From contig NC_091990.1 in NCBI RefSeq assembly GCF_044704955.1, positions 176,886,001-176,950,000 of the forward strand: DNA of 64,000 nucleotides. The letters run 5' to 3'. Made by a program: the position numbers and the translations under genes. Each line of letters begins with the position of its first letter. Within the stretch, counting starts at the first letter, position 1. The notes beneath the pieces were generated by a model. The model saw only the letters and a list, made by a program, of their open reading frames with translations, was not told the origin of the DNA and searched no databases. Below are positions 3,837 through 52,007 of this stretch, in pieces. Origin of the DNA: Pristiophorus japonicus. Lineage: Eukaryota.

Positions 3837-5135
3837 TTAATATTCAGCGGCTGGAACTATCATTTCTCCCATTCTGGCACAACAGCACTTTACCAGCATA
3901 ACCAAGAGTTACAGCACTATTATGACAATAACAATTGTAACAAATCCCTGCATCAGGGTGGTTCCAATTGATCCCAACCAGCCGGTCGTCCATCCCCACA
4001 AGGAGGAATCCGGCGTTTGTCGAGCCTTTGCTGCCTCTGTTTGGATGTGGTTAGCTAAATCGTGGGTAGTCTCCGAGCTATCTGGGATGTAAGTGCAACA
4101 CTCTCTTCCAATTATCGCACATGTGCCTCCCTTCTCGGCTAAGTTAAAGTCTAGGGCCATCTTGTTTTGTAAAACCATTGTGCGTATTGCCACGGTTTCG
4201 GTGCTTATGCCTTCCAGCGCTTCAGCCGTATCATTGGCAACCTCTTTGAGTAGGGAGGCCAGGAGTTTTATTTCGTTTATTGCTTGGGCAACACCATAGG
4301 AGGGTGCTATGATAGCAAAGAATCGGGCGGTCTCACTTATATCTCTTTTTGCCAAATGAGGGTGTTGTGTCAAAGACCTCAGATGATGTACGTATGGGAC
4401 CACGTAAGCCAGGTAGCAAGACCCGGTCCGCTTCAGTGGTAGCCAGGGGTACGCCTTATGGCCACAGACAAAGTATGTCCCATTATATGGGCTGTATCGT
4501 GTTACCACCTCAGGGGCCCATGCGTCAGTCAGGTTGCTACCATCCGTAAGGTTCTGGAATATTATGCGACTATTATCAGCGTCATCAGTTACGTTAAAAT
4601 ACTGGGAGCCCTTACTACGCCCCATTGTTTGCCCTCCAGTATGGTTTCTAATGAAACAAACCGACCCGTGTGGTTTCCCCTATTCCTGAGGTATTAGTAA
4701 GAACCAGGAACGGGGGCTGACAACTTGTATTGTACTTGGGCTGGTACCATCCTGTGAAGGTTTTTAATGGGTGGCCTGCTTGTTTCCATTCTGCCGCACT
4801 TCCCTTCATACTAACTATATACCTTCCACCCCAGGTGGCTAGACTTCCTTCTCTTGTCTCATCCACGGAGGAGGCGTTCTGGTTGATGTACCATTCCGTC
4901 ACCTCCGACAGGTTGAGCGGTACGGGCCTCAGCGGAATACCTCCGTTAGCGTGAATTGGGACATATGCGCATACCAGCAGTTTGACAAATTTTTAGCTTT
5001 AGCATGCGTTTATGACATATACAAGAACATGTTAACATGTAATTCCCGTTTTCTCCGGAGGGCCGTACCTTTTCCCCATTGGCTAACGCCGAGGAAGCAA
5101 AACACAGATAAAGTGGACAGCACTTTCATTCTCAT
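3837..5135 (-). pseudogene. env: ERV-1 env (gamma-type, ~430 codons; stops and frameshifts)
   Basis: Signal MRMKVLSTLSVFCFLGV, RRKR, CW(V)C, HLAKR cleavage site, LQNKMALDFNLAEKGGTCAIIGRECC, TM anchor, KCCC tail. Confidence 0.93.
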
Positions 5136-5245
5136 TGTTACTTATTACTCTACACTTTAACAATCTCCCAAACCTGCGTGTAACTTGTTTATAGAAGATG
5201 TGTCAGGGCCTTCCTGTCAATGGTAATAACGAGGTTTGTTAAATA

Positions 5246-8200
5246 TTAGGGCCCATATACTTTAAGCTGGGACCAATGTTTCCATTGTCCCTTTCCCTTA
5301 ATGTCCACACAAGCACAAGTATCACTGCTAAGCATGACCTCATAGGGTCCTATCCATTTCGGGGCGAAGCCCGGTTTTCCCGGTATGATCTTGACCATTA
5401 CCCTTGTCTCCGCCGGGGGTACTTCAGGGAGAGTGGTCAACTTAAGGTTATCATCTCTTTCCTTTTGGTCAGAACGAACCGTTTTCCTCATATCTGCCAA
5501 TTGCTGACTCAATTCGATGAGGTAGGTTCGCATTCTATTTTTCAATGGGCCCACCTCCCGTGGCGATGCCCTCGGGCAGCAACATTGCCCGTCCGGTCAT
5601 CAGTTCATACGGGATAAATCCGGTAGTGCGATTGGGGGTCGCTCTTAATTTCATTAGGATTATAGGCAACACATCTACCTAGGTTTGTCCAGTGTCCCAG
5701 ATGGCCTTCCCCAGAGCCATTCGTTCTACCATACCCGAGCTCTGAGGATGGTAGGGAATGTGGAGCCTTTGTCTGATTCCCAATAATTTGCAGACCATTT
5801 TCATTACTGATCCTGTAAAGTGTGTGCCCAGGTCCGAATCTATTTGCAATGGTACCCCCCATCACGGAATTACCTCCTCCGCCAAGATTTGTGCCACGGT
5901 AGTTGCCGTGCAGTTTCTCGTTGGAAAGGCTTCTACCCAACGGGTGAATTGGTCTATCACCACCAAGCAGTATTGTTTTCCCCGGGAAGCTGGGAAGGGC
6001 CCAGTGAAGCCTATCTGGACGTTATCCCAAGGTCCCCGCGGGCGTGGCTGATGTGCCATCCGGACCTGTACCGGTTTTCCACTATTGTGCTGTGCGCATA
6101 TAATACATCTATGGTAATATCGGCTGACGTCCGGCCTCAATCCCGGCCACCACCAGTCTTTCATAATCGCAATTGCCATTGGGACTCGTGCGGTATGGCT
6201 CGCGCCATGGTGTAATTCCATTAACATCTGCCTTATGCAGGACGGTGCTACTACTCTCCCGTCTTTCCTCCACACATGGTCCGCTTCCATTTTTGCTCCC
6301 TTCTGTGCCCGTTCCCCTTTCTCGGCGGCGGGGATGTCCTTTATACATCCTTTATTTATCCTTTCCTGTTCTACTCTTGCGGCCGCCACTTGTTCCACCC
6401 GTTCCGACTCTAAGGCCGTCTGTGCGGCCTTGTCAGCCGCTTGGTTACCCTCCTGTTCTTTCGTCTTAACCTTTTGGTGTGCCTTAATCTTTATAACTGC
6501 TGCCTGTGTCGGTTTACTTGAGGCTTCTAATAGGTTCCTAACTCTTACTTGATGCTTAACGGGCTCTCCCCCTGTGGTGATAAAGCCTCTGCGTCCCCAT
6601 GCGGTCATATAGTCATGCACTACCCCAAATGCATACCGACTGTCCATATAAATGTTTACGGTTTTTCCTTCTGCTTCAATGCTTCCGTGAGGGCCACCAA
6701 TTCGGCTACCTGAGCCGACAGGCTCCCATTTATTCATCCCGACCTCTCAACGTCTAAATGCTCGTTCACCACAACCCACCCAGTCCGCGGGGCCCCATCT
6801 ATATATGTATGTGATCCATCTACGTAGAAGGTGAGCTGCAGGTCCTCCAACGGTACATCCTTCAGCCTTCCCATGTTCACTTCCTCATCCACTTCCTCAC
6901 ATTCATGGGGACTACCTTCCCCCATCATCCCCTCTGCTGGATTCTCCCCCGTGTCTCTGATTATCTTGACTGACTGATCGGCGGGTAGTAACACTGCCTC
7001 CCACCTTGCCCGGCGCATGTTAGAGACGGACCTCAGCCTTCCAGTGTTTAACATTTCCACAATGGTATGTTTGGTATGTAGGATAATATCTCCTGTCATT
7101 ACCACTGGTTCACTGACATTTAGTGCCCATGCAGCACAGTCCAAGATGGCTACACATCGCGATAGTCCCTCTTCTACCAGCGACATTTTTGTAGAGTAAT
7201 ATGCCACCGGCCTCTTTCTATCCCCATGATCTTGTGCCACTACTGCTGTGTAAAATCCTGCATGATTGTTACAGAATATATGGAATCCCAGTCCGGGTGC
7301 TGTAATGAGGGCCCGTTTTAACTCCATATAGGCTTCCTGTTGTTTCGGGACCCATTCTACCTCCGACTTGGCCAGAGGGGAGCCCCTCACTAATGCCTGT
7401 ATAGGTTCGACTATTTCTGCAAAATTAGGAATAAAGCTCCGGCTGTAATTAAAAAGACCCAGGACCTTCCTCACCCCCCTTACGGAGACCGGACGAGACA
7501 TTCGTTCTATGGCACTCCGCCGGTCTCCGGGCATGGTTCGTTGTCCCTGCGACAACTGTTGTCCGAGGTACGTGACCTGGGCCAACCTTATCTGTGTTTT
7601 CTGTGGATTTCCCTTAAACCCGCCCTCCAGCAGTGCTTGCAATACCACGACCAGCGCAGTGGCGTGCCCCCTTTCATCCTCTGAAGCGATTAGGAGGTCG
7701 TTTACATATTGTAAAACCGTACTGTGGTACGGTGTCAGGTCTACTTTTTCTAATAATGCGCTCATGGCCCGGTGGAAGATGGCTGGACTATTGTGAAATC
7801 CCTGTGGGAGTCTTGTCCAGTTATATTGCTTGGCCCCGACTGTGAAGGCGAATTTGTCCTGAGGCGTCCAGTCGAGGGGGATAGACCAGAATCCATTTGC
7901 TATATCTAAAACCGTAAAAACCTTATGAGTGGGGCTGAGCCGGTTAAATATTGTGGCTGGGTTGGCCACAATTGGGTGTACCTTCGAGGTGACTTTATTT
8001 AGGGCCGTGTAGTCGATCGTAAGGCGGTAAGACCCGTCTGGTTTAGACACTGGCCACACAGGGGAATTAGTAGTGGTTTCAGCGTGTCTCACTATTCCTC
8101 TTTTCTGCAGCTCCTTAACTATTTCTTTAACCGCCTGTGCTGCTTCCGTTTTAATGGGGTACTGTCTGTGGGCGGTGTGGGCTGGTCCCTCGACTGTAAT

Positions 8201-8721
8201 GGCCGGCATAACCACCTCTCCGCATCTTGCTTGTCCTTGGCCCAAACTGCAGACAAGGCACTACATACCGCTCGATAGATTCCCTTAATCTTTGTCCAAT
8301 CTTGTGCCAAAACTTGCACACTTCCTACCTTGGCCGTATGGCGGGTATATTTAGTGAGATGTGTCCTGGCCCCATTTGCTTCCGGCCAGTGCAATTTAGA
8401 CTGTCGGGCATCTATCAAGAGGTTGAGGTCCCTCATGAGGTCGAGCCCCATGATGGTACCCTCGTTATTTTTACACACATAGAACTGTGCAGGTATCATT
8501 TTCCCATCTATTTCTACCACCTGCACTGTGCTTTTGTACGCGTGGACTCGTTCTCCTCCTAAGCCCACTTTCACTATTTTATCCTTGGTTAACGGGAGGG
8601 GTATGTTGGTAAAAGAGACCGAGCATCCTGTGTCCACTAACATTTCACACTGTCTGCCTCCTATTAGTGCAGACACATACATTCGTTCATCTGACCCTCC
8701 TTCCCCGGGGACCGCAGACCG
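5246..8721 (-). pseudogene. pol: ERV-1 pro-pol (PR, RT, RNase H, IN with GPY/F), frameshifted
   Basis: LVDTGCS; LPQGFHNSP; YVND (mutated YVDD); YVDGS and YMDSRYAF; HHCC; PKWIGPYEV. Confidence 0.95.
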
Positions 8722-10083
8722 TCAATAGCTGCTCCCTGACTTCTTGAGGAATTCCAGGTATTTGCGGTACTCGTTGCTACCTATTTGTTGTTCGAGAGTC
8801 CCAGGGGCCGATGTTTTACTGGCCTCGGCCTGTCCCGCCCAACATTTCTCCGCTAGGTGTCCCACCTTTCCACAATTCTTGCAGACAGGTTTCGGGACTT
8901 TACAGGCCTTTGCCATGTGCCCGGCCTTACCACAATTAAAACAGGTTCGGGGTCGGGTACCCTGCGCCTGTCCTGTCGCCCCTCTCTCTTGTTTTGTAGT
9001 TGGGCCCCCATGTTCTCGCTTTGCCTCTTGGGCATCTACGTTACGAGCCCACCATACTACATCATCATAGGTGGCGGCGACAACCACCCCCATTTTCAAA
9101 ACCTTTTGGTGTTCGGATGATAATCCCTCCTTAAACATTTGGACAAAGGCTGGGTCATTCATTGCGGCATTTGGCTGTCCTGATGATTTCTCATAGGCGG
9201 CGAACAGTCGTTCCTCGTATTCTGACACCCCCTCTCCCTTTTTATCTGTTTGTATGTCATAATTTTTCCCCAATTAGTGGGAGCTGCCCCGAGGACGGTT
9301 TGTACGGAGGCCTTAAAGGCAGCAAAAGGTGCCCGTTGGGCAGCTCTGTCTGACGCCAGGACAACATTCGAGGCCCAAGTCCCGTCCCGATAATTTGCAT
9401 TAGCCTGGGCTCTCCACCGATCCTTCGGGCACTTGGCCCTGACCAGTTGATCGATGTCCCTGGGATGTAAGTCATGTACATCCCAGGTCTCGTCAAGGGC
9501 CTTCCAAAATTCTATGTTGTTACTCCTTGGTTTCAGAGACCCAAGGTCCTTCAGGATGGTTTGTTTCTCTAATGGCGTAAACGCGGCATATTTTGCAGTT
9601 GGGTTTGCCGCAGTTCCCCCCCCCCCCCCCTTCTCACTGGAGCTGCTTTTATTTCCGTGACGCCGTCACCCCTTCACCATTCTGACCCTCCATTTCGGGA
9701 AGGATCCGACGCCACGGGATATATTGGCGCATATGGGGCCGGTATTTCTCGTCCGAACATTTCTCCTGATGCACATGACCTATTTGGTGTACTGGTTATA
9801 TTTTCCAATTGTTTCTCTAATTCTCTGATTCTTTTTGTTTTATATCTATCGTTTTCTTCTGCTATTTCCTGTAACCGTATATATGCTTGGGCCAACATTA
9901 TCCCCGCCTTTTTTGTTCTTTGTTTTTCTGTTTTTCCCACCAGTCCCATTGCGCCGGCAGCAGTTTGGACGGGTCCCACCCGTCCCGATTCATTTTCTCT
10001 CTCACTGTCTTTCTTTCCTCCATAAACCATCTGGTCAAGGATCCTGATGGCCCCGAACTAAATGTAGAGTCCTTACCTGCCAT
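8722..10083 (-). pseudogene. gag: ERV-1 gag with two CCHC zinc knuckles, frameshifted
   Basis: Starts MAGKDST; contains [14 protein letters not shown] and [14 protein letters not shown]; ends in TGA in frame with the protease. Confidence 0.88.
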
Positions 10084-10456
10084 CGTAGTACGTCTACACT
10101 TATGTCCTAGTGGGTCCCGCTTATCCAGCTGGGACGCCTACTATAATCCGTTGTCAGAGGTGCCTCACTTGTAAACCCACACTTTCCGGGTCTCTCAGTG
10201 GTGTCTCACTTGCGACTAATACGTGGCATATCACGGACCTATTTAACGTTTAGTCTTCTGTAAATAAGAAACAATAGTTACGGAACCGCGGGTCGCGACC
10301 TATATAAGCCGTTTAAGTCACAAACCCACTCCCTTAGTTCGTTGGATCCGTCCGAGTGACCTATTCACCAGTCCCACGGTGTCAATCTATGGACGGTCAG
10401 AAATGTGACTCCTCGCCCGGTACCGCGGGCCTAGGTAGAGAGAGTCCTCGACACGG

Positions 10457-10474
10457 ATCCTGCCGACTATGCCA
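10457..10474 (-). other. ERV-1 primer binding site, tRNA-Ser(AGA/TGA)
   Basis: TGGCATAGTCGGCAGGAT, a 17/18 match to the complement of the vertebrate tRNA-Ser 3' end as I recall it. Confidence 0.88.
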
Positions 10475-10477
10475 AAT

Positions 10478-10876
10478 TGTTAGTGAAATAATTTATTCAC
10501 CGGAATACGGAGTGAGTTTTGTGAATCATAAATGGTTTATTAAACAGAGCGTTCTGGGAGCGACGCCGTGGACTCCGCAATCACAGCAGCCAACTTCTCG
10601 TTTAAGCAGAGCGGAGCAGAATCATTTATACATTGAAGTAAACAAGTATAGAAAATCTCGTTATTGTACAGAAAATCTTATTATTGATAAGAAATCACCT
10701 GACCCATGAGTCATATCATCGCCTTTGTCTACATGACGTCTGTATATGATTATACGGTTAAATGGTTTATGCTAGAGTGTGACCTCATCCCTAGTTGTGC
10801 AACTGGGGATTTTCCACCCCCCTGCTGCCAAGCTGCCACCCGTCCGATTTCCCAGCAAGCTCTATTTACTCCAACA
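10478..10876 (-). repeat. ERV-1 5' LTR
   Basis: Direct repeat of 3191-3593, followed on the minus strand by the PBS. Confidence 0.95.
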
Positions 10877-15253: not shown

Positions 15254-17770
15254 GGTTCCATGCACCGTCGTATTTCAGGACGACATCCTCATCATTGGCC
15301 GCAACACCTCCAAACACCTGCACAACTTGGAAGAAGTTTTAAGTTGACTAAACAGAGTTGGACTCCGGTTGAAATGATCCAAATGTGTCTTCCTGGCACC
15401 AGAGGTAGAATTCCTGGGGAGAAAGATTGAAGCAGATGACATCAGACCCACAGACTCGAAGACAGAGGCCATCAAGAATGCACCTGCACCACGAAATGTA
15501 ATGGAGCTGCGCTCGTTCCTGGGACTCAACTATTTCGATAACTTTCTTCCAGGGTTGAGCACCTTGCTGGAATCGTTGCACAAGCTGTTACGCAAGGGAG
15601 ATGACTGGGCTTGAGGTAAAAATCAAGAGACCACCTTTGAGAAGGCCAGAAACCTGCTGTGTTCGAATAAATTGCTGGTATTATATGACCCATGTAAACG
15701 TCTAGTTTTAGCATGTGATGCGGCATCATACGATGTCGGGTATGTTTTGCAGCAAGCCAATGCAGTGGGCAAGCTCCAACCGGTTCCATATGCATCCAGA
15801 AGCCTATCAAAGGCCGAAAGAGGCCACGGCGTGGTCGAAAAGGAGGCTTTAGCCTATGTTTACAGTGTAAAAAAGATGCACCAATATTTGTTTGGACTCA
15901 GATTCGAGTTAGAGATGGACCACAAGCCCCTAATCTCACTGTTTTTCGAAAGCAAAGGCATAAATACCAATGCTTCGTCTTGAATCCAAAGATGGGCATT
16001 AACACTGCCTACGACTATGTGATCCACCACAGGCCAGGCACTGAAAACTGCACTGATGCTCTCAGCCGATTACTGTTGCCAACCACCAGGGTGGAAATGG
16101 CGCAACCCCCAGACCTGCTACTGGCCACAGATACCTTTGAAAGCGAAGGGTCACCCATAACGGCTCGCCAAAGTAAGACTTGGACCAGCTAGGATCCTCT
16201 GCTATCCCCTGTAAAAAGTTGCGTCCTCAATGGGAGCTGGTCAGCGGTCTCTAGAGACATGCAAGACGAGATCAAGCCGTTTCACTGTTGTAAAGACGAA
16301 ATGTCAATCCATTCAGATTGCCTCTTATGGGGCAACCGCGTTATCTTGCCAAAGAAAGGCAGGGAAACCTTCATACGTGACCTACACAGCACCCACCCAG
16401 GCATAGTCATGATGAAGGCTATCGCCAGGTCCCACGTCTGGTGGCCCGGCATTGACTCGGTCTTGGAGTCGTTCGTGCACCAGTGTAACACATGCTCACA
16501 ACTGAGCAATGCTCCCAGGGAGGCTCCACTTAGTCTCTGGTCTTGGCCCTCAAAACTATGGTCCAGGATCCATGTGGATTATGCGGGCCCCTTTCTGGGA
16601 AAGATGTTCCTGGTTGTTGTGGACGCCTACTCCAAATGGATTGAATGTGCAATAATGGCACCCAGCACGTCTGCAGCCACCATTGAAAGCCTCAGGGCCA
16701 TGTTTGCCACCCATGGCTTACCCGACATTCTTGTCAGCGACAATGGTCCGTGCTTCACCAGCTCGGAATTCAATGAATTCATGACCCGTAATGGCATCAA
16801 GCATGTCAGATCTGCCCCGTTCAAGCCCACATCCAACGGCCAAGCGGAGCAGGCAGTCCAAACCATAAAGCAGAGCTTGAAATATGTCAAGGAAGGCTCC
16901 TTACAAACCCACCTGTCCCGGGTACTGCTCAGCTACAGGACATGACCCCACTCACCCTGCAGCATTACTAATGAAACGAGCACTCAAAACCAGGCTCTCC
17001 TTAGTCCACCCTGACCTCATTGATCAGGTGGAAACCAGGCGTTATCAGCAAAACACGTGCCAAAACGTACCATGATCGCGCAGCTGTATCACGCGACATC
17101 ACTGTAAATTACCCTGTGTTTGTGCTGAATTATGGTCAGGGCCCTAAATGAGTCGCCGGCACTGTATTAGCCAAGGAGGGGAATAGAGTGTTTGTTGTCA
17201 AGCTGCTTTAACGGTCAAATGTGCAGAAAACATTTGGACCAAACCAAATTATGATTCATAGATAACCAGGAACCACCGGAAGAGGATCTCATCTTCAACG
17301 ACCCACCGACACACACCCAATCGACAACAGACCTCGCTGCCAACCACGAGGATGATCCCACCATCCCCAACAGTCCAGCCCAACCAGTCACGCTGCAAGA
17401 CAGCAGTGGCCCAACCAACTCACCCAGGCCAGAAGCGACACTCAGACGGTCAACCAGGGAGCGCAGGGCTCTGGGTCGCCTTAACCTGTAATCAACTCGC
17501 ATCAAAGACTTTGGGGGGGGGGGGAAATTATGTCATGTATGCAAACTATTTGTATTCACTATGTAACTATGTACGATGTCCCACCTGAGGGCGTTGCTGT
17601 TGGAGGCCCCAGGGTTTTCCTGCCCTGGTGTGCAGGGGCATATAAAAGGCAGCCAGCCATGCTGCCCCTCACTTTGCAGTCGTATTAAATGGACTGAAGT
17701 CACACAGCTCTTACTCACAGTACAAAGCCTCATGGAGTTATTCGATGGTAATTGCAGACATAATAAAAAC

Positions 17771-18170: not shown

Positions 18171-18194
18171 GAGAAGGGGAGTGGTGAAGACAAT

Positions 18195-19430: not shown

Positions 19431-19434
19431 GAGC

Positions 19435-26744: not shown

Positions 26745-27020
26745 ACAGAAAATGCTGGAAACACTCAGCAGGTCAAGCAGTATCTGTGGAGAGAGAAACA
26801 GTTAACATTTCAAGTTGATGACCTTTCGTCAGAACTGGAAATGTTAGAGATGTAACAGGTTTTAAGCAAGTACAGAGGTGAGGGGAGGAACGAACAAAAG
26901 GAAAGGTCTGGGATAGGGTGGAAGTTAGGAGAGATTACATGACAAAAGGGATGCTAGTACAAGGCAAAAGGAGATTGTAATGGGACAACTAAAAGGAACA
27001 AAAGATGGGTCTAGAGGATG
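26745..27020 (-). mobile_element. Penelope-like element terminal fragment with minimal type I hammerhead (26799-26837)
   Basis: Minus strand cagtt-CTGACGA-aaggtcatcaactt-GAAA-tgtt-aactg; stem I cagtt/aactg is intact. Confidence 0.65.
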
Positions 27021-30019: not shown

Positions 30020-30410
30020 CAGGTAGAGCTGGAGCGCCAGGCCCTGGAACACTGTGGGCGAAAGTGCGGCGAATGAGGGTACGGGGCCCAGAAGAGCCGA
30101 GGGCCCAGAGGCAGCACGGGCCTGCCCACATTGCGATGTGTGCGCACACTAGGACCGTGCAGCAGAGCAGGTCTCCAGTTGTCCCCTGGTTCAACCCTTG
30201 CCACTGGATAAAGGCCGAGCTCTGTCGAGCCTGTGTGGTGGATGATGTGCAACGGTCGCCACACGTTAAAAAAAATCCACGCACAGGCATCTTCCACCCC
30301 CTCAATTGGAGTTCAGGACTGGAACATCGGGTCCTTCATTGAAACATCTGTGAACTCTTGTGGAAGCAAGTCATCCTCGCTCGAGGGACCACCTATGATG
30401 ATGATGATGA
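30020..30410 (+). mobile_element. Bipartite non-autonomous RTE derivative (RTE 5' UTR end + RTE 3' tail)
   Basis: Shares ggtctccagt..cacgcacaggcatcttccac with 38200-38330 and gtggaagcaagtcatcct..(atg)n with 28300-28350. Confidence 0.75.
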
Positions 30411-37472: not shown

Positions 37473-37479
37473 TGAAAAT

Positions 37480-39775
37480 GGCCGTCAGGGTAGCAGCCCC
37501 CTAGGGAGCTCCCCTGCTAAACAGATCCTCGACAACTTTTCACCCTCGACCTCCCCCCTCCCACTGTCTAAACTTCCCAAGCCCCAGCCCTAGCCCTAAT
37601 CTACCCTAATAGGGGGTCTTAAACACTTAAATACCCACTCTAACCCCAACCGCGCGAATCCCAAAGTTTGGGCCTACCTCAGGCCTCCCGCCACACCGTA
37701 CATTGGCAACTCGGCGCAACCTGGGCCTCCTGGCTGGACCTCCTGCGGTGACCCGACGCGACCTGGGCCTCCCGGCTGGACCTCCTGCAGCGACTCGACG
37801 TGACCTGGGCCTCCAGGCTGGAGCTCCTGCGACGACTGGACGACTCGGCGTGACCTGGGCCTCCCGGCTGGATCTCCTGCAGCAACTCGACATGACCTGG
37901 GTCTTCCGGCTGGACCTCCTGCGGCAACTCGGCATGACCTGGGCCTCCTGGCTGGACTTGGCTATCGGCCCCCCCCCCGCCCCCTCCCATCTGCACCTCT
38001 CCTTCCCCACTGATGGCCTGGTCTCCTCTCCTCCTCCTCCAGCACGTGGTGAGTACAATGGCTGTGACCCCCCTGTCCCCCCATTCTGAACCCCGGTGCC
38101 TGCCCCCAACCAAGCCTTGGACCACTTACCATCAACAGCGCTACCCAGTGCCGTGCCTGCGGCCAACATCTCGCCATAGGCAACTAGGCCTATACAGCAG
38201 TGCCTGGTCTCCAGTAGTCTTGGACTCCCTTGCCACTGGACCAAGACCTTGCTCAGCTTAGCCCATGTGGTGGCCGGTGTGCAACGACCACCCCATGTTA
38301 AAAGAAATCACGCACAGGCATCTTCCACATCTCTAACATGAAGTTTGGGACCTGGGACGTCAGGACCCTCATGGACAACCCCAACAGTGACAGACCGGAA
38401 CGCCGCACCGCCATAATTGCCCGGGAACTTAGACGCTTTGATATCGACATCGCCGCCCTAAGCGAGACCCGGTGGGCAGGGGAAGGCCAATTCAAGGAAC
38501 AAGGTGGAAGTTACACCTTCTTCTGGAAAGGGAAACCAGAGGCAGAACGCCGCCTCCATGGAGTCGGCTTCGCCACCAAAAACGAGCTGGTCAACCGCCT
38601 CAAAGACTCCCCCTGTGGGGCTAATGAATGCCTCATGACTCTTCGACTCACCCTATCCTGGAACCAGTGCGCCACAGTCATCAGTGCTTATGCTCCAACA
38701 CTCGATGCAACAGATGAGGCCAAAGAGGGTTTTTACTCCAACCTCGAAAAATCCCTAACCTGCGTCCCCACAGGCGACAAACTGATCCTCCTCGGCGACT
38801 TCAATGCCAGAGTCGGCAAGGACACAGACCTCCGGGGAGGTGTGATTGGCAGAGAGGGGGTAGGGAAAGCCAACTCCAACAGTACCCTACTCCTGACAAA
38901 ATGTCTAGAGCATGAACTTGTCATCACCAACACCTTGCTCCGACAGAGGGACAAATACAAGGCATCGTGGCAACACCCTCGCTCCAAACACTGGCACCTG
39001 CTCGACTATGTCATCGTCCGAGCCAGGGATCTCAAGGATGTACGCATCACCCGTGCCATGACAGGCGCTGATGACTGCTGGACGGATCAGCGCCTAATCC
39101 GATCCATCATTGACATCAACGTAGCCCCAAAGCAAAGGGGGCAGCAGAAGCAGTGTCGCAAAAAAGTCAATGCCAGGCCACTTAAGGACCCAGCTAAGAG
39201 AGCCCTTTACAGTCAGCGCCTCACAGCTAACCTGGCGTGCCTTGATGACCCCGAGACGCAGAATGCCCAAAGTGCTTGGTCTGTCCTCCAGGCCTCCATA
39301 ACCAGTGCCTGCAAAGAAACATTCAGTCACTCAACCAGGAAACACCAGGACTGGTTTGATGGAATGATCAGGAGATTCAAGCGCAGGGCATTTCTGAGCC
39401 TTAAACAGCAACCCAACTCGGGAGCAGCAAAGCAGCATTACAGACGGCTAAAGGCTAAGGTCCAACAAAAAACCTGGGACCTAAAGAACAGGTAGTGGAT
39501 GGAGAAAGCACAGGAGATACAGCAGCTGGCCGACAGCCATAATATGCGAGGATTCTTCATCACAGTCAAGGCCATCTACAGTCCAAACACCCAAGGCCCC
39601 ACCCTGCTGCTGGCCAAGAACAGGGAAATACTCATCAAGGACACTGAGGCAGTCAGGGCCCACTGGAAGGAGCACTTTGAAGATCTCCTCAATCGAGATT
39701 CTACCTTTGACTCGAGTGTTCTTGACTCCAATCCGCAGCATGCTACCCGCCACCACCTCAGTGCAACCCCGACAC
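37480..39775 (+). mobile_element. RTE LINE 5' half (long GC-rich 5' region and APE endonuclease ORF 38338-39495); 3' half deleted
   Basis: GTWDVRTL, ALSETR, ISAYAPT, LLGDFNARVG, LDYVIVR. Confidence 0.9.
37705..37960 (+). repeat. 42-bp GC-rich tandem repeat (6 copies) upstream of the RTE ORF
   Basis: cctgggcctcc recurs at 37720, 37762, 37804, 37854, 37896 and 37938. Confidence 0.88.
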
Positions 39776-40656: not shown

Positions 40657-41310
40657 ATCATCATCATCATCATCATAGGCGGTCCCTCGAAACGAGGATG
40701 ACTTGCTTCCACGCCAAAAAAAGGATGAGTTCACAGGTGCTTCGAATGAAGGACCCGAACGACATCCTCAAGGGTGGAAGATGCCTGTGCGTGGATTTTT
40801 TTAACATGTGGTGACCGTTGCACACCAGCCACCACACACGGGCTTGACAGAGCCAGGTCTTGGCCCAGTAGCAAGGATTACCCAAGACGACTGGAGACCA
40901 GCTTTGCTGCACGCACCTAGTGCGCACACATATCGCAGTGTGGGCTGGCCTGTGCTGCCCCTGGGCCCCTGGCCCCGAACTCACGCTTCTCCTGGGCCCT
41001 GATCACATCCTTCCACAGTCTCTCGCCGCCCCATCGCCCCGACCTCGCCACTCCTGCTGTATCTGCCCACACTCCCATACCGACCTGGACCTTGATGATG
41101 TCACACTTCGCTGCCGTCGCCCTCCTGCACCAGCTTGCACTGCTCCCTGAAGTGGCATGCCTCCATGCTGCCCATGGCCGCCGCTCGCTGCTCCTAATAT
41201 GGCCCCGACCTGCCACTGATGCTCTCTCGTAGGTCGAACACTCCCAGGGCTGCAAGGTGCTGGAGGCTGACACCCAGCAGAACACCTCACCCCTCTAGGG
41301 CAAAAAAACG
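40657..41310 (-). mobile_element. Bipartite non-autonomous RTE derivative
   Basis: (cat)n tail and homology to 30020-30410. Confidence 0.75.
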
Positions 41311-41729: not shown

Positions 41730-43710
41730 TTTGGCACAAGATGCCAGAGAGAGGACCCCAAGGTTCCCTGACGCAGCACTGAAGGCATTATTGCAGGTGG
41801 TGGACAGGAAGAGAGAGGTCCTGCATCCACTAGGGGCCAGGAGACCCTCCACACAGACACTGTGAAGGTAGTGGGAACAGATAGCAGTGGAGGTAAATGC
41901 TGGCAGTGTTGCCACAAGTACTGGATACAGTGCCGAAAGAAATTCAATGTCCTCATATGAGTGGTCAGGATCAGTGAATGCCATATCCCATGAACTATAC
42001 CACTAGTCTCACACACAGCTCAATGCACCACACCAATATCACTCACCTACCAACAAGCTCTATCAATCATGACTTGGACCTCACATTTATAGTTCCACTC
42101 CATCCTCACACACTTACCACTGCTGCAAGCCTCACACCCACATCTACAGCTTCCACACACTGCCAGCGAAGCATACATAACAACCACATCAACCAAACAT
42201 ATTGCACAACACTCACTGACACATTTCTCTCTCTCTTGTAGGAGAAGGTGTCGCACAACCGCAGGGAGCAGTAGCTAACTTAAGGGGGACATCATCATCA
42301 TCATAGGAAGTCCCTTGAGTCGAGGATGATTTGCTTCCACGCCAAAAAGTTCACAGGTGTTTCAATAAAGGATCTAATATTCCAGCTCCAGAACTAAATA
42401 TTGAAGGATGGAAGATTTGTGAGCGTGGATTTTTTTAACATGTGGTGACCGTTGCACACCAGCCATCACATGAGCTTGACAGAGCTTGGTCTTGGTCCAG
42501 TGGCAAGGGTTATCCAAGACGACTGGAGACCAGCTGTGCTGCACAGACCTAGTGCGCACATATATCGCAGTGTAGGCTGGCCCGTGCTGTCCCTGGGCCC
42601 TTGCCTCTTCTGGGCCCCGAACTCATGTCTCTCCTTGGCCCGGTCACGTCCCTCTACAATCTCTCGTTGCTCCTTTGCCCCGACCTCACCGCTCCTGTAG
42701 TACCTACCCGCTCCCGCGCTCCAATCAGCGACCTGGATCTTGGTGACATCCAACCCAGTCGCCCTCTTCGCTGCCGTTGCTCTCCTGCTCCAGCACGTGC
42801 TGCTCCCTGGAGTGGTATGCTGCCACGCTGCTGCTGCCACACTGCTCCTTCCACTGCCCGGTCTGCTCCAATGGTGCTCGGAGGCTGGGGGCCGCGCAGA
42901 TCGCTGGACCAGGCTACCACGCTGCTCCTTTTACTCAGATGGCATGCCTGCATATCCCAACCTCGATTAAGGAGACGGTGCTTGGCATGATTGGAGCTGC
43001 CATGACTGAGCCCGTGGCCAGCGGCAGAGCTGAAACCATTGAAGATGATATTCTGATATGTTATCCTCCTTCTCACATTCCACTTCCCCCTCATCCAACA
43101 ATCCCTACTGATTTACAAACTGCACAAGGTGTAAGCAAAGGCATAAGCAAGGCAGACAGTAAGGGAATGCACAAGGGTGATTAGTTGACTTTGTTATGTA
43201 ATATTGAATGGATTGATGAGTAAAGTTGATTTGGAATATTTGTTTTGTGGTGGTTTTATTTTCGCATTGTGACCAAGAGGACGCTGTGATGGCCAATAAC
43301 AGAGGGAAAGTAAGGTGTGGGACTGTGAGTGAATGGGGAATTGGGGTTGCGTTCACTGGTACTGCAGTCAAATCAGTTGATCATGAGCAGAACAGCTAGA
43401 AAGGGGCTGTCATGGTTGCCTCCTCCCTTCCTCCTCCTCGTCCTCAGGTATTTGCCGTATATCTGGTGGCAAGACCTGTGCCCTCATGGTGGCGAGGTTG
43501 AGCAACATGCAGCAAACCACAACTAATCTTGAGACGCGCGCTGGTGAGTACAGAGGCTCCTCCAAAGTGGTCCAGACAGTGGAAGCGTAGTTTAAGTACC
43601 TCAACAGTCTGCTCGATCACATTCCATGCTGCTCACGTGTGCTGGGATTGTGCACCAGAATCCTGAGCCAGGTGGTCAGCAGATAGCCCATCACCCAGTA
43701 GCCACCCTGT
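41730..43710. mobile_element. Decayed PIF/Harbinger transposon: Myb/SANT gene (+, 41730-42290) convergent with DDE transposase C-terminus (-, ~43400-43710)
   Basis: Plus strand PRFPDAALKALL..WEQIAVEVNA..QCRKKFN with an acceptor at ~42241. Minus strand WLLGD, NVIEQTVEVLKLRFHCL, VVCCMLLN. Confidence 0.8.
42291..42940 (-). mobile_element. Bipartite non-autonomous RTE derivative inserted in the Harbinger remnant
   Basis: Same structure as 40657-41310. Confidence 0.75.
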
Positions 43711-43711
43711 G

Positions 43712-43960
43712 GTTTGTATAGCTGCAGCATAACTTCTACCCTGCTATATTCCAGTCCATTGGATATAAAGGACAGCATTCCTTGAAATAATTTCTGTACC
43801 TGTTCATGACATTTTAATGATCTATGTATTTGGACCCTCAAGTCTCTTTTGACCTCCACTGTTTTTAGCTTTTCACTATTTAGAAAGAACCCTGTTCTAT
43901 CCTTTCTAGGTCCAAAGTCAATGACCTCACATTTGCCTACTTTGAAATCCATTTGTCATA
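43712..43960 (-). mobile_element. CR1 LINE fragment
   Basis: FKVGKCEVIDFG, VMLQLYK. Confidence 0.75.
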
Positions 43961-44599
43961 GTTTTGACAATTAACTTTATCTATGTTTTTAATGTCTTTT
44001 CATTGTGGAATAATAAAGAATGAATCCTTGATTTAAATCAGATGGAAACCTCAGTAGAAAATCAATGTTAAACAATGGTCACAAGTCATTTTAAACAATT
44101 GTAAGATATAACAAAAGAACACTGAAAAATATTCCCATCTTATGAAAAGAGAACATATCTTGCACTGTGAGTTCAGTAACCAGTGAATGGCCATCAGGAA
44201 GTGATCGGTGATTCATGACACACCTGTACTTATTGAGAGGTGATCTTATCGAAACGTAGAAGATTATGAGGTGGCTTGACAAAGTGGATGTTTCCACTGA
44301 TAGGGGTGACTAGAACTAGGGGGCATGATCTTAGAATAAGGGGCCGCCCATTTGTTCCTATTTCTTATATTCTTATGTTCTTCCAAACCCCGACAAGGGA
44401 CATCGTTGGAGTGGATATCCAGAAGTCACAACACTGTCACTATTCACTTCATACCCAATAAAGCAGTATCAGTGAGGTTTTTCTCACAGAAAAAATTCAC
44501 TGACATTGCTTACATTAATTTACATTTATTAAATCATTATCGATTTTAACACGACAGAGAGAAGCTTTTGGGAATATAGCAGATCTCTTGTAGCATTGC

Positions 44600-45022
44600 T
44601 CGAGTTGAGTCACTAAGGCAGTGAGGAGAGCTATGCAGCGCGAGCCGGTTCAGAAGGGCGACGGCAGTGAAGAGGGCGACTGGATTGGATGTCACCATAA
44701 CCCAGGTCAGTGATTGGAGCATGGGCAGGTACAGCAGGAGCGGCGATGTCGGGGCGAAGGAGCAGCAAGAGATTGCAGAGCGATGTGATCGGGGCCCAGG
44801 AGAGGCGAGGGTCCAGGGGCAGCACGGGCCAGCCCACATTGCGATATGTGTGCGCACTAGGTCCGTGCAGCAGAGCTGGTCTCCAGTCATCTTGGTTAAT
44901 CCTTGCCACTGGACCAAGACCTAGCTCTGTCAAGCCCGTGTGGTGGCTGATGTGCGACGGGCATCGCACGGTAAAAAAAATTCATGCACAGGCATCTTCC
45001 ACCCTTCAACATGTAGTTCGGA
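44600..45022 (+). mobile_element. Bipartite RTE derivative split by ERV-2 (tail at 52651-52750)
   Basis: Joining 45022 to 52651 restores the sequence seen in the other copies. Confidence 0.8.
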
Positions 45023-45370
45023 TGATAGAGAATTCAAACAGGCTGCATTTAAACAGACTGTGAAAATTCACAGACCCCCAAGTCAAGGCTGCTACATGCA
45101 ATTCAGCATGTTGCATTAAGTCATCAATCAACTTGACATTTTAGGACTCATGGGTAGCGAGCCAATTAAAAGGTTAAAAGACTATTAATTGAGCCAATAA
45201 GGTCAAAGAAGGCGAGTTCTTTTCTGTAAATTGATCCAGGTATAAGTACATTTTGACCATGTGGTCCCAGAAGGTTAAAGCCAAGAACTTGTTACTGCTG
45301 TCTGCCAAAAATAAAGCAGTTAAAACTACAATCGGAGTTCATATTTCATTGGAAATTAAGAGATCTAACA
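45023..45370 (+). repeat. ERV-2 5' LTR
   Basis: TG..CA with CCAAT boxes, TATAA and AATAAA; direct repeat of 52283-52645. Confidence 0.95.
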
Positions 45371-45374
45371 ATTT

Positions 45375-45392
45375 TGGCGTCACGAACACGAT
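45375..45392 (+). other. ERV-2 primer binding site, tRNA-Ser(CGA)
   Basis: TGGCGTCACGAACACGAT, a 17/18 match to the complement of tRNA-Ser(CGA) as I recall it. Confidence 0.82.
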
Positions 45393-45645
45393 CGCTGAGG
45401 AAAGAAACTGAATTTTGGACATCGGACCTACATACTAAGGTAAGGACACCTCTTTTTTAAAAGTCCTCGGTCAAAAGTCTAAATTCGCCTCTCCTTCTAC
45501 GCGATTCCGAAAGCCTCCGGTTTGCGAACCCTCCGGTTGGTAGTCGGCTCGAGGTCCCATAGACGTCTAAACTTTGGCGGTGTGTTAGTTAATTAATCAC
45601 TGACCTATTGATCGGACTCGAGACCCCAGTAAACAAATCAGTATT

Positions 45646-47182
45646 ATGGCAGCAGGAGATAAGAGCAAAGAATTGCCTACAACTGTTAAAGGTGGGCAGG
45701 CACCACCTGAAGTTTCGCTAGATTTAATTCTCGAACAGTTGAAAGAATACATAGAGCAACAATTCAACTTATCTAAAACCTGTATTAAGATCGAACAAAA
45801 GTACGGAACCTCCAAAGGACAATGGTCCTTGGACGAGATTAAAAGGGTCTGGGGAAAAACGACGCGTATGAAAAATAAAGAGCGAACTAGATGGTCCCTA
45901 GCGGTTATGGACCAGATTCGAAAGCGGAATGAAATTATAATGCGTTCCCAACATGATCGAGAACTGACCAGTACAAAGGATCAATTGCAAGCAGTTTGTG
46001 CGCAACTGCGACAGAAAAAGCTTGAACTTGAAAAGCTGGAAGCGGAAGTTAAAGATCTTAAAGGTGAAATTAAAGAATGGAAAAAATCATTAGGTCAAGA
46101 GACAGTAATAGGAAAAGAAAAATGTATTGATCAATTCCCAGGGTACCCATGTTTGGATAAATTAAAAGCGCAAACCCGAAGACACGACCGAGGAATAGAT
46201 ACGAATTCTGAATCCTCTGACGATACAGGGTCGGAGGATGATGAATTAGGGGTGCGCTTTGCCCCGTTTAAAAAAAGATGAGTTGTAGTCAAATCAAAAG
46301 AGACTGCGGATGAGGGCGGAATCAAAAAAACAAAGAAAAGGGTGTACGAAAAATACTTAGTTCATGATCCGGCAGACCCAGAGAAAATTGATAAATGGTC
46401 CAAGGAATTGCCCAATCCAAAGAAAGGGGGAGTAAAAACGTGGGACCAATTGGGCCGCTTAAGAAATATATATCAACTTCATCCCTGGGACGGAGTGCAA
46501 ATTTTGACCATAATGGTGCCAAAAACACAGGGAAGAAAATTGCACGACAAGGTAGAAGAAGCTTTGGGGCAGGATGAGCAAGATTTAGATGCAGGATGGG
46601 AGGCGATTAAAGCTAAGACAGACTGGGGAAAAATTGCAGCCTGCTATCAGAAAGGAACAGGAGGTCCTGGAGTATGACGAGCAGTTTAGATGCACGTGGC
46701 TAGAACATTCGGGTATGAATAATACGGATGAGGAAATGGATGAACAAGTGTTTGGACCCCTGAAAGCAGCTTTCGTGGCAGGTCTAAAGCCAGAACTGTC
46801 CAAAATGCTGAAGGTAGTGTTACCGGACTGGGAAGGTAGAGGAACTACCTTTGCAGCATTGGTGGATCGATGTAACCAAATAGATCGGGATATGGGAGCT
46901 AAAGTCCGAGCTGTACAGGCTATGGGATGGAAATCCCAGGATCCCGATAAACAGTTATTTGGAAAATTACCCGGAAAATGTCATTATTGTGGGAAAGAAG
47001 GTCACTGGGCCAAGACGTGCAGGGCAAAACAGAAAGGTCGTGGCTGGGGAAGAGGACGCCGCCAGGGATACAATGCAGCCAACAAGCCAGGCTTGTCACA
47101 AGATAACGATCTCATAGAAGCATTTAAGCAACTGACAATACATCAACAGAAGGAGTTACTTGGGATAGCAAAAAACGATTAG
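45646..47182 (+). pseudogene. gag: ERV-2 gag (coiled-coil region, single CCHC knuckle), disrupted
   Basis: ORFs 45646-46281, 46342-46677 and 46589-47182; CHYCGKEGHWAKTC. Confidence 0.88.
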
Positions 47183-47256
47183 AGCCCACCCTGGCCTCCC
47201 TCCTCGCACTAATACAACAAAGGGGAGATGGGCTATATATAACTGTGAGGGTGGGC
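47170..47256 (+). promoter_or_regulatory. Putative -1 ribosomal frameshift signal (A AAA AAC + downstream stem)
   Basis: Heptamer at 47170-47176 in the gag frame; 7-nt spacer; GCCCACCCT (47184-92) complementary to AGGGTGGGC (47248-56); the -1 frame is open into LLDTGA. Confidence 0.78.
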
Positions 47257-50200
47257 GATAAGGATGTGGACTGTCTTTTAGACACAGGGGCAGAATTAAC
47301 ATGCTTACCCCTACAATATGGAGACTTTTTGCCGTTGGATGGTAGGGCACGTACAGCCTATGGAGTTGGGGACCATAAAATGGAAATTAAAAGGACAACA
47401 CCGGTACTTATAGGGCTGGGTCCACATGAACTAACCACGCCAGTCTGGATAGGTCCAGTAGATCAACCCCTTTTGGGAATGGACGTTCTAATCCAAGTAG
47501 ATTCATCATTGCATTTCGAGGATGGTCGGGTGACATGGTCAATTAGAACTTTGAAGAAAGAAGAATTGAAGGAACACCCGATATGGGCTAAAGATAAGAA
47601 CGATTGTGGCGTACTCCAAATGAAGCCTGCGTCATTTACAGGGACCAAGCCTCCATGCACTAAACAGTATCCCATCAGTCCAACTGCCATCGCGGAAATC
47701 TTACCAGTTATTCAGCAATTGGAGAAAAAAGGGGTGCTTATTAAAACGCATAGCTCCTCCAATAGCCCCGTGTGGCCGGTACAGAAATCTAATGAGTCTT
47801 GGCGTTTGACTGTCGATTATAGGAAAGCTAACCAGTGTATTGATCAAAAAGCTCCTTTGGTCGCAGATCCCTCCATTTTTAATGCCCTCAAACCGGAACA
47901 TAAATATTTTTCGGTTATAGATATGGCCAACGGATTTTGGTCGGTGCCTCTGGCACCGGAGGTTCGACAGTGGTTTGCTTTCACGGTCCAAGGACAACAG
48001 TATACTTGGACCCGGTTACCGCAGGGTTTCCACAACAGCCCTACGGTATTCCACATGGCTTTACAAAGCCATTTGCGAGAATTACCTCCCCTGTCATCCA
48101 GTCATCCAATATGTAGACAATATCCTGCTAGCTTCAAACACGGAAGAACAGCATGAACCAGATTTACGAGCTTTGCTGGATCACCTTCGGCTGAAAGGAC
48201 ATAAAGCCAGCATCGACAAAGCACAAATATCCCAAGAAGAGGTTGTATACCTGGGACAAAAGATTTCACAAGGAAAGAGAGAACTTACCCAGGATAGAAC
48301 TGCAGCCATTCGGGCTGCTAAAAAACCCACCACTATTCAGGAACTAAGGTCTTTTTTGGGATTGTGTAACTTTAACAGAAATTGGATTCACTCCTTCACA
48401 CAGCTTGCTCAGCCATTGAATGATATTTTAAAGGGGAAACGTGCCTCTAAAGAAGCCATCACCCTCACAAAAAAACAGCAAGAGGCCTTCCTGAGTTTGA
48501 AAAAGGCTTTGTGTTCGGCACCGGCTCTGGGAATCCCCGACAGTGGTAAGCCATTTACCCTGTTTGTACATGAGAAAGAAGGATATATGACAGCTATACT
48601 GACACAAGCACATGGGGATCGGCAAAGGCCTATTGGCTATTATTCGGCAAAACTGGATGCGGTAGCCCTCGGATGGGGAAGTTGCCTAAGGGCCATGGAA
48701 GCTACATGTCGAGCGGTAATGACCACTGCGGGTCTAGTCCTCGACCAAAAGCTGATTGTCAAGTGTCCCCACACCGTACACGCTTTGCTGTCTATGAATA
48801 GAATGTCTCAGGTGACAGCAGCAAGATGGACCCGATGGACAGCAGTTTTGGAAGCTCCTAATCTCCATATCGTCCGGGCCAGCCCGGTTAATCCCGCAAC
48901 TATGCTCCCGATGTCAGAATCGAGGGAGCAAGAGGGGGGAGAATGTGAAGAGCATGACTGCATGGAGATTTTAAAAGAAACAGAAGAAGCAGCCTTAGCA
49001 GCAGAGGAGCCTCTGCACAACCCAGACCTCATCCTGTTTACAGATGGTTCCTCCTTTGTTGACAATGGTACCAGAAAAGCAGGATGGACAGTTACAACCT
49101 TATATGAGGTAGTGGCAAAAGGATGTTTACCCTCAGGAACGTCAGCACAACAGGCCGAGTTACGGGCCCTGTCAGAAGCATGTCGAATAGCAGAAGGACA
49201 GACAGCTAATGTCTACACAGATTCGCGTTATGCTTTTGGAGTCGCTCATGACTTTGGTATGTTATGGCGGAAAAGAGGATTCCTCACTGCTGCTGGTACA
49301 CCTATCCGAAATGGAAAAGAAGTCCGAGACTTACTGGAGGCCATACAATTACCTCAGGAAGTGTCCATCCTGAAGTGTAAGGCCCATACCAAAGGAAAAT
49401 ACCACAGAAGCACAGGGAAATGCCCTAGCCGACCAGGCAGCTAAAGATACCGCCTCACAGGGCGTTCCTCCAGAAGAACCAACACAGATGTGCAGATTGA
49501 AAGCATTCAGGACTCTGACACGAGACCTTCAAACAATGCAAGGCGAGTGCTCCCGAGAGTAAAAATGGACATGGATTGAGGCAGGAATTAAGCTATGCGA
49601 AGATGGTGTCTGGAGACAAAGAGTTACCGACAAGCCAGTCGCGCCACAAGCGCTTATGCCTTTTTTAGCCCAACAGATCCACTCGTGGGGACACTTGTCC
49701 TCACAACAGATGACGGCATGGTTCCAGAAAAGCTGGTGGGGTCGGGGATTTAAAAAACATGCCCAGCTGGTAACAGACCGCTGTGTGGTCTGCCAGAAAA
49801 ATAATTCTGGACCCATCACGGTAATGCCCCAATTGAGGCATGCCCCTGCATCTGCAGGTTGATTATATATCTCTTCCTTCATGCCAAAGATACACTAACA
49901 TTCTTGTCATGGTCGACAGATTCTCTAGATGGGTAGAAGCTGTCCCAACTAAAAGAGCCACAGCTAATCACACTGCAAAGGTCTTGTGTAAGGATTACAT
50001 TCCCCGATGGGGAGTCCCGAGTAGTATTGACTCAGATCAGGGAACACACTTCACAGGTGCTGTCTGCCAAGAAGTCTGTAGGTTACTGAACATTACGTGG
50101 GATTTACACTGTCCTTATCATCCACAATCATCAGGACAAGTAGAGCGAATGAATCGAACTCTGAAACAACGGCTTGCCAAATATCACCAAGAAGGAACAC

Positions 50201-50630
50201 CATGGCCCCAGGCACTACCAATAGTGCTATGCAGCATTAGGGCAACCCCGAACAGAACTACAGGTCTAAGCCCATTTGAAATTATAACAGGAAGACTCAT
50301 GTCGCTGCCAGGAACGATCGATTTACGGAAAGCTGATGTTCACTTAATGAGTGACACTCTGTTATCATACTGTCAGAACCTAATGCTATTAGTTCTGTTT
50401 CCCGACAAGTATCGGCAGCTTGGGGTAATCCACCCGAAGGAGGACACGACATCATCCCGGGAGTCTGGGTGTATGTGAAAAAGTTGCATAAAGAACCTTT
50501 AGGTGCCAAATGGGAGGGACCTTATCAAGTGTTATTGACCACCCAGGCAGCTGTTAAAGTCCAAGGAAAGAAAGCCTGGATCCACGCTTCACACGTTAAA
50601 CGAGCACCCGTAACTGAAGCTGAAATCTAA
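47170..50630 (+). pseudogene. pol: ERV-2 pro-pol, frameshifted
   Basis: LLDTGAE; LPQGFHNSP; YVDN; FTDGSS; YTDSRYAF; LQVDY, DSDQGTHFT, GQVERMN; WEGPYQV. Confidence 0.95.
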
Positions 50631-50654
50631 TAAGGACAATTACTTTTTGCGAAA

Positions 50655-52007
50655 ATGTATAAATTTACTGTATTATTGATTGTAGGTATTATAGGCATAG
50701 GCCTACTTCTTACTAGCTGACCTTCTGCACCAAAGGGAAATAGTAGGGTAGCAAGGGAATTACATGTAAGTACCTTTTTATATATGTCATACATTTATGC
50801 CAAACAAGGTAACATTTCTAGTTGTTGGGTGTGTGCGCATATTCCTATTCACTCAAAGGGAGGGATTCCCTTGAGGCCAGTTCCCTTGAATATCTCAGAA
50901 ATGGCTGAGTGGATAATTAATCAAAATAAAACAGGCAATGCGTTTCAGGATGCGGAAAATTGGGCACGTAAATGGAAGTCAGCAGGTTACAATCTGACTA
51001 CCTTTGAAGGGGGATACCAATCGTGCTATAATAATTCCAAACGGCCCCCATTTTTTGTTATCACTAATACAACGGGAATAGGAAGACCGGGGGAATCAGT
51101 CTGTCTGATTAGAAACATCAAAGGAGGCCAAAATATGGGGTATAGTAACTGCTCCCGGAATTATAATATAATCAAGCCACGGAACCGTCCAAACTGGGCC
51201 GATGTGGGAATTTTTAACGTAACGGGGATTCTGAATAAAACAGATGGAAAAGCCTGGACAGGCCCCGGAGTGTTGCTGACAAAGAAACAGCTAACATTCA
51301 TTGCATATAATGGCACCTATTGGGTGTGTGGCCACAAGGCCTACCCTTGGCTGCCCCAGAATTGGATGGGATCCTGCTATTTAGCCTACATTGTGTCTTA
51401 TATGTATCATATAAAGTCACTGTCGGAACATTGACACCGTCCTAAGAGAGCTATCACAGAAACAGAGAGGTTCTTTGCCATTCTGATCTCTGGGTATGGG
51501 ACCGCCAAACTGGCAAGGGAATCCATTAACATGGCATCCGTTGTGGAACGAGTAGCCAAAGATACCTCAGAGGCCCTCGTTAAAATCAATGCAGAAATGG
51601 TAGCAATCCGCACAGTAGCCCTACAGAATAGACTGGCCCTTGATTACATCCTGGCTGAAAAGGGAGATACTTGCACCCTACTCGGAACTGAGTGTTGCAC
51701 ATATATCCCAGATAGCTCCGAAGAAATTACCCACTTAGCGGAGCATATCCAAAAGGAGGTAGAAAAACTTGAGCAACCCCCATCATTCACTTTGTGGAGT
51801 GGAGCCACTGAATGGCTAGGTTCAATAGGAACTTCATTGGTGGAAGGTTTAATTCTATTTGTTGTAATTGTTTTACTTTTATATTGTTTGTTTATGTTGA
51901 TTAAATGTTGTTGCGACCAGGCGGCTGTAGCTGCTGTCCCGCAGGTGAGACACCTTGCAGGTCCCAGCAGACCGTCTGTACGTGGCACAGGAGTATGTTA
52001 TGCTTAA
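50655..52007 (+). pseudogene. env: ERV-2 env (450 codons, two in-frame TGA, no frameshift)
   Basis: Signal MYKFTVLLIVGIIGIGLLL, RVAR, CWVC, RPKR, LQNRLALDYILAEKGDTCTLLGTECC, TM anchor. Confidence 0.95.

Follow-up and report, generated by a model that had tools for sequence, protein, structure and literature searches.

In a 64,000-nucleotide stretch of the Pristiophorus japonicus genome (contig NC_091990.1, positions 176,886,001 to 176,950,000; this whole stretch is called the window), we identified two endogenous retroviruses (ERVs), ERV-1 and ERV-2, both of them defective proviruses, whose class I, non-gamma pol lineages separated long ago. Their envelope genes (env) are closer to each other than their pol genes are, and env was decoupled from pol across nine ERV families of the same genome, with block-like swaps of env sequence in families other than those of the window pair. 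Envelope exchange very probably lies behind this decoupling; the env genes of ERV-1 and ERV-2 would be too alike for their pol ancestry because retroviruses in this host repeatedly swapped env.

Both proviruses showed the order long terminal repeat (LTR), primer-binding site, gag, pro, pol, env, purine tract and LTR, flanked by a target-site duplication. Pfam matches followed in the order zinc knuckle, protease, reverse transcriptase (RT), RNase H, integrase (IN) and TLV_coat, and stops and frameshifts were scattered across gag, pol and env of both. The features of ERV-1, with ISD denoting the immunosuppressive domain, are as follows.
3191-10876, minus strand: whole provirus, with paired LTRs, primer-binding site, purine tract and 5-bp target duplication
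10478-10876, minus strand: 5' LTR (TG...CA), 94.8% identical to 3191-3593; target duplication GCATA/GCATA
10456-10474, minus strand: primer-binding site, starting with TGG immediately inside the 5' LTR
8722-10083, minus strand: gag, frameshifted, with two zinc knuckles, terminating at an in-frame TGA-CGG (readthrough-type junction)
5246-8721, minus strand: pro-pol (protease, RT, RNase H, IN), spread over several frames and interrupted by stops; Pfam RVP, RVT_1, RNase_H and rve; pol clade I
3837-5135, minus strand: gamma-type env; TLV_coat E 6e-12; ISD and CX6CC in the translation
3191-3593, minus strand: 3' LTR, preceded by the purine tract

The features of ERV-2 are as follows.
45023-52645, plus strand: whole provirus, with paired LTRs, primer-binding site, purine tract and 5-bp target duplication
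45023-45370, plus strand: 5' LTR (TG...CA), 93.2% identical to 52283-52645; duplication TCGGA/TTGGA with one mismatch
45375-45392, plus strand: primer-binding site
45646-47182, plus strand: gag, broken, with one zinc knuckle
47170-47258, plus strand: probable -1 frameshift signal at the gag-pro junction, an A AAA AAC heptamer with a downstream stem-loop
47170-50630, plus strand: pro-pol, spread over several frames; its pol belongs to clade II and is nested among those of teleost ERVs
50655-52007, plus strand: gamma-type env with CWVC, furin site, ISD, CX6CC and membrane span; two in-frame stops; TLV_coat match
52283-52645, plus strand: 3' LTR, preceded by the purine tract

Both primer-binding sites presumably match tRNA-Ser. 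In the surface subunit (SU) of ERV-1, env was damaged by stops and frameshifts, with the CXXC motif straddling a frame break, and one further stop lay within the membrane span. The env homologue of the ERV-2 family matched syncytins. ERV-2 has split an older dispersed repeat (44635-45021 and 52653-52750), of which further copies lie at about 30079-30409, 40661-41171 and 42290-42831. Tandem arrays with units of about 41 and 42 bp were found directly past its 3' LTR (52774-53271) and at 37667-37998.

Comparison of the two proviruses gave 183/346 identical positions (53%) for the whole of env, versus 364/981 (37%) for the whole of pol; these are profile-column identities, which omit insertions and so run somewhat high. 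The N-terminal block of SU, put at about 70% in an earlier note made by eye, reached 42/61 (69%) by tblastx (17/28 plus 25/33) and 36/53 (68%) in profile columns, but it is the best stretch of SU, around the CXXC motif; in profile columns, the middle of SU gave 32/84 (38%) and the whole of SU 102/190 (54%). The ectodomain of the transmembrane subunit (TM), at 68/121 (56%) in profile columns, agreed with the roughly 55% first estimated. For the RT core, the estimate of about 50% held over a segment like the one first counted (50% over 126 aa), while the whole core was lower, at 95/206 (46%). The thumb/connection region gave 71/216 (33%), RNase H 59/145 (both in profile columns) and the IN core 77/148 (52%). 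The remaining contrasts noted by eye were all borne out: gag gave only two weak matches, 31/128 (24%) and 37/129 (29%); ERV-1 has two zinc knuckles versus one in ERV-2; and the LTRs are unrelated, their local score of 23 being reached in 21 of 300 shuffles. The gag-pro junctions also differ: that of ERV-1 has an in-frame TGA-CGG, that of ERV-2 the A AAA AAC heptamer and a stem-loop, with the downstream frame at -1.

In the trees, the path between ERV-1 and ERV-2 was 1.50 for RT and 0.85 for env, a ratio of 0.57. The SU path from ERV-2 to ERV-1 was 0.93, versus 1.10 and 1.16 to the pol sisters of ERV-2, from which it is separated by RT paths of merely 0.24-0.29. Without exchange, it is difficult to account for an SU of ERV-2 that is nearer to that of ERV-1 than to those of its pol sisters.

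To place the pair among its relatives, we used 80 further ERV loci of the same genome, picked via five protein searches and thus biased towards the neighbours of the protein queries. Grouped by identity, they comprised family A (the ERV-1 family, 5 loci), B1 (3), B2 (18), C (5), E (1), D (the ERV-2 family, 26), Da (1), Db (1), F (6), G (6) and H (8). The assembly is repeat-rich and 5.9 Gb in size; among 150 matches listed for each, the ERV-1 family had at least 26 genome matches at 82% or more, and the ERV-2 family at least 150, all those listed being at 94% or more. A search for a named exogenous fish retrovirus gave no locus in viral contigs, and protein searches gave just host-annotated or unnamed proteins.

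The RT tree, built from 26 of 82 genome rows and 26 database pols, contained four lineages. Lineage I, with A, B1, B2, C and E (support 100/99), includes ERV-1; lineage II, with D, Da and Db (100/99), includes ERV-2 and lies within a clade with teleost pols (100/100); lineage III joins F and G (100/100); and H is the fourth. RT identity between these deep lineages was 31-41%. One locus (L072) was left out of RT comparisons, as its RT rows belong to another, unrelated element, at about 25% identity to all the rest. The loci of lineage III (L095-L099, L102, L104, L105, L107-L109 and L111) sat on a long branch near gamma-like pols, and their RT identity with clades I and II was 30-36%.

The env tree (23 genome rows and 20 database envs) was star-like, and its one cross-lineage link singled out by support joined B1 with G (100/100). 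The earlier note had named congruent RT and env trees as evidence against exchange, and the two trees proved incongruent. Over 16 rows from nine env-bearing families (36 pairs), RT paths correlated closely with IN paths (rho 0.94, Mantel p 0.0002), and this was not seen with env (rho 0.19, p 0.13), SU (rho 0.09, p 0.30) or TM (rho 0.04, p 0.34). The env/RT path ratio was 1.65-3.09 for the six pairs inside clades I and II, 13.5 for F and G, and 0.25-0.92 across all 29 between-lineage pairs. In approximately unbiased (AU) tests, env rejected the monophyly of pol clade I (p-AU 1.7e-67) and of clade III (6e-149). A second AU round, for A+B2 and for A+D on whole env, SU and TM, used smaller sets and a simpler model that errs more often; with B1, F and G removed, whole env still rejected A+B2 under this model (p 0.028).

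These comparisons bear on the view that no exchange occurred in the ancestry of the pair, env having descended vertically with pol and stayed near 50% because a small SU and the TM core are constrained. Such constraint is consistent with the position of the 70% block around CXXC, a region that gamma-type Envs conserve and that pairs with TM (PMC9967133), with the narrow env identity band of 45-61% that holds most family pairs, and with an IN core conserved as much as env. However, the pace of env divergence inside pol clades is 1.65-3.09 times that of RT, and no floor at 50% exists: against ERV-2, named teleost envs were 31-40% and named ray envs 35-44% identical, compared with 53% for ERV-1. 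Env is thus not generally as conserved as in the window pair, the other finding named beforehand as telling against exchange, since named teleost RTs were 56-58% identical to that of ERV-2, versus 39% for ERV-1. Together with the swaps directly visible in other families, these results largely refute vertical descent, which we regard as very improbable.

The clearest swaps were found outside the window. Between B1 and G, whose loci span 8.7-9.2 kb and whose RTs are 34% identical, the sole DNA match was an env block of about 1.2 kb at 80-84%, in all four pairs tried. The sharpest env swap observed was between one G locus (L108, 6252-7482) and one B1 locus (L045, 6097-7337): DNA identity lay at 54-66% (baseline) ahead of env, rose to 89-97% between the env start and the cleavage site (SU), was 69-80% in the TM ectodomain and returned to baseline afterwards. 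The same G locus was 84-93% identical to F through the end of pol, after which identity fell. Other G copies gave 75-93% across SU, a spread that suggests more than one round of exchange. F and G have pol in common (RT 90%, IN 97%) and not env (SU 49%), that is, one pol family with two envs; the SU of F was 74% identical to that of Db, a clade II element. B2 matched clade II at 72-76% in TM and merely 45-48% in SU, a contrast which, with the F and B1/G patterns, indicates that the histories of SU and TM are partly separate. On the question of whether recipients retain their own membrane span and tail, those of G were unlike the ones of both B1 (5/42 and 6/43) and F (8/44 and 9/43).

Could such combinations have arisen through assembly chimeras, or through recombination between proviruses after insertion? 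The assembly is large and repeat-rich, and our evidence comes from assembled sequence rather than reads. However, the pol-env combinations recur at independent loci on different contigs (A in 5/5, B1 in 3/3), the G combination is present in five copies with RT and in one LTR-bounded copy with IN, that of F in four with RT, and the two proviruses of the window are each bounded by paired LTRs and a target duplication. We consider an artefact of this kind highly implausible.

Another explanation, itself a special case of exchange, is a single direct transfer between the lineage of ERV-1 and that of ERV-2, either of env or just of SU. The ERV-2 family rows were the closest non-family env rows to ERV-1 (path 0.92), the SU tree grouped A with D/Da/Db (74/88), and A+D sisterhood was rejected neither by whole env (p 0.084 in the first AU round and 0.155 in the second) nor by SU (0.49). 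In contrast, TM rejected A+D (p 0.019), the TM of ERV-2 was 72-78% identical to B2, Da and Db versus 56% to ERV-1, and named shark envs (50-51%) were about as close to ERV-1 as the ERV-2 env is (53%). The mapping of breakpoints, proposed in the earlier note for this pair, found none: env DNA identity between ERV-1 and ERV-2 was 35-71% per 100 nt, overlapping the shuffled baseline of 47-70%, and it was B1/G that showed clear boundaries. A single direct transfer therefore seems unlikely. Of the probable exchange put forward earlier, the decoupling of env history from pol stood, as did the closeness of the pair's env for its RT distance (0.57 versus 1.65-3.09 among pol sisters); the movement of one module between these two lineages did not, given the star-like env tree and their unsupported sisterhood. 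The evidence is best read as a common pool from which both acquired env, the ancestry of the pair including one old exchange or more.

Several points weigh against exchange as the explanation of the decoupling. The deep env tree is a polytomy, with 12 of 40 inner branches open, and therefore no breakpoint was mapped for an exchange involving the pair itself. Env did not reject pol clade II (p-AU 0.20), and A+B2 was not rejected by TM (0.074) or SU (0.143) alone. The strongest AU rejections were driven by the B1/G and F swaps rather than by the window pair. Da and Db are single copies, and the database teleost pols and envs are not linked element by element.

As regards mechanism, template switching between co-packaged genomes is an established route of retroviral recombination. 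The swaps would have arisen by such switching during reverse transcription, between viruses active in one host over overlapping periods, with crossovers probably lying close to the pol/env junction, around the SU/TM cleavage site and ahead of the membrane span. The compact, gamma-type envs of ERV-1 and ERV-2 would both stem from a single young radiation of env, common to at least four pol lineages in the host, and an ancestor of one of the two, if not of both, probably acquired its env from this pool long ago. LTR identities were 89-96% in A, 95-97% in B1, 88-96% in B2, 89-99% in D, 96-97% in H (5 copies; another weak 72% match was set aside), 98% in G and 97% in F (one copy each). The identities of the families overlap, at 88-99%, which supports an overlap of their periods of activity. 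Internal gag-pol deletions that kept env and both LTRs were seen in L055-L062, L080-L082, L096, L100, L101 and L108, partly an effect of the env-based selection of loci.

Family C, in the pol clade of ERV-1 (RT 63% and IN 77% to A), has a different gene at the env position. None of its five copies (L050-L054) matched a gamma-type env; the position is occupied by a 750-codon frame without a Pfam family (e.g. L051, 6308-8560). Fusion-glycoprotein clusters were among the closest matches by feature (score 0.93; Fusion_gly on 21% of members), which is a lead only. A PDB search gave no real match (one hit, E 0.31). LTR matches of 97-100% in four of the five copies indicate a recent family. The single family E locus (L049) also gave no gamma-type env match.

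Sharks were the source of nine of the ten best named env homologues, as would be expected with a cartilaginous fish as host, and we infer that env tracks the host group while pol crosses fish classes. A wider model, to which we give slightly less than an even chance, would combine a host-restricted shared env pool, with SU and TM exchanged separately, at least four deep pol lineages using one env radiation, two envs within a single pol family, both gamma-type and fusion-protein-like envs within a single pol clade, and a switch of the ERV-2 lineage from readthrough to -1 frameshifting. If true, the dated swaps in one genome would be numerous enough for rates of exchange and preferred crossover sites to be measured, and host adaptation would appear to reside in env, with pol lineages moving between fish classes.

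As to classification, both elements are predicted to encode a gamma-type Env, with ISD and CX6CC in TM and CXXC in SU. A clade I pol matched the RT of murine leukaemia virus (MLV) and the xenotropic MLV-related virus at E 6e-120, foamy virus at 1e-59 and human immunodeficiency virus at about 1e-18 to 1e-26. The ERV-2 clade sits in the RT tree between clade I and gamma-like reptile pols, as expected of class I. Neither element is a gammaretrovirus proper: in the tree, neither RT belongs to the clade that the gamma-like reptile pols form, and no Gag_p30 match was found in five gag pieces. Nor is either an epsilonretrovirus proper like walleye dermal sarcoma virus, as env is gamma-type and no accessory open reading frame of at least 120 aa lies between env and the 3' LTR.

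The gag-pro junctions were conserved within families. TGACGG was retained in all three ERV-1 family copies spanning the junction. The protease of ERV-2 is in the -1 frame relative to gag; in its family, 18 of 22 copies spanning the junction had the heptamer and 13 of 22 the same frame offset, and the heptamer also occurs in Db. The junction fold gave z -3.27, with 3 of 200 shuffles equally good. We conclude from motif, frame and predicted fold that the ERV-2 junction probably uses a -1 frameshift. In this family, a one-base gain just past the gag stop was common to three copies, the remaining indels being scattered. In PMC13517186, readthrough is given as the rule for gamma- and epsilonretroviruses, and if class I elements normally use it, a -1 frameshift in a class I lineage would be unusual, a small separate lead. 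The ERV-1 TGACGG resembles, by description, the UGA readthrough-type junctions of a zebrafish ERV (UGACGA) and SSSV, the swim bladder sarcoma virus of salmon (UGAAGA), in the same paper; the -1-frame junction of ERV-2 is unlike those of the zebrafish ERV (ZFERV) and SSSV. Among titles and abstract openings, with subscription journals outside the scope, we found no paper that deals with ERV-1/ERV-2 or with -1 frameshifting in any class I ERV of fish.

Pol/Env exchange in ERVs of anamniotes is already published, and the present case is a well-documented further instance. Chen et al. (bioRxiv 10.1101/2021.11.23.469661) described ERVs with gamma-type env in six cartilaginous fish, with widespread Pol/Env incongruence interpreted as frequent recombination, and their data set may include related shark lineages. 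By description, our elements resemble theirs in an epsilon-related class I pol with a gamma-type env, no accessory genes seen and a cartilaginous fish host; unlike their clades across hosts, decoupling was measured here within a single genome, across nine families, and recent swaps show their block boundaries. Epsilonretroviruses of the walleye virus type have a non-gamma Env and accessory reading frames (bioRxiv 10.1101/2021.11.23.469661; PMC9967133). According to PMC9967133, many fish ERVs with epsilon-like RT carry a gamma-type Env, CXXC at an N-terminal position is known for some gamma-type Envs, and ZFERV has gamma-type Env motifs, as do ERV-1 and ERV-2. Env recombination is reviewed as a major driver in PMC10536682, where RD-114, XtERV-S, TgERV-F and PyERV combine the gag-pol of one lineage with the gamma-type env of another, as here; those are single tetrapod events, whereas one genome here holds many reciprocal combinations, some involving SU more than TM. 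The elephant shark CmiERV II/III likewise represent several independent epsilon-related lineages in one cartilaginous fish, but the three shark ERV lineages of PMC4422223 are described and classified there on Pol, unlike the env comparison made here. Our results confirm that RT-based classification misses much of fish retrovirus history. They provide an unusually clean within-genome set of env swaps with visible block boundaries, and the gain is one of resolution (module boundaries, frequency, SU versus TM) rather than a new principle.

Other repeats make up further parts of the window. Related remnants of Gypsy-type LTR retrotransposons (integrase, RT-RNase H, gag-protease), 67-75% alike, lie at 1-2411, 15256-16945, 31855-33460 and 54402-61218, and 2632-2980 matches 54402-54752 at 93%. 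Fragments of long interspersed nuclear elements (RT; endonuclease) were found at 26929-27891, 38302-39495 and 61554-63131. Within the last Gypsy-like region, 57292-58224 is a degenerate G-rich repeat that contains an N stretch at 57498-57664.

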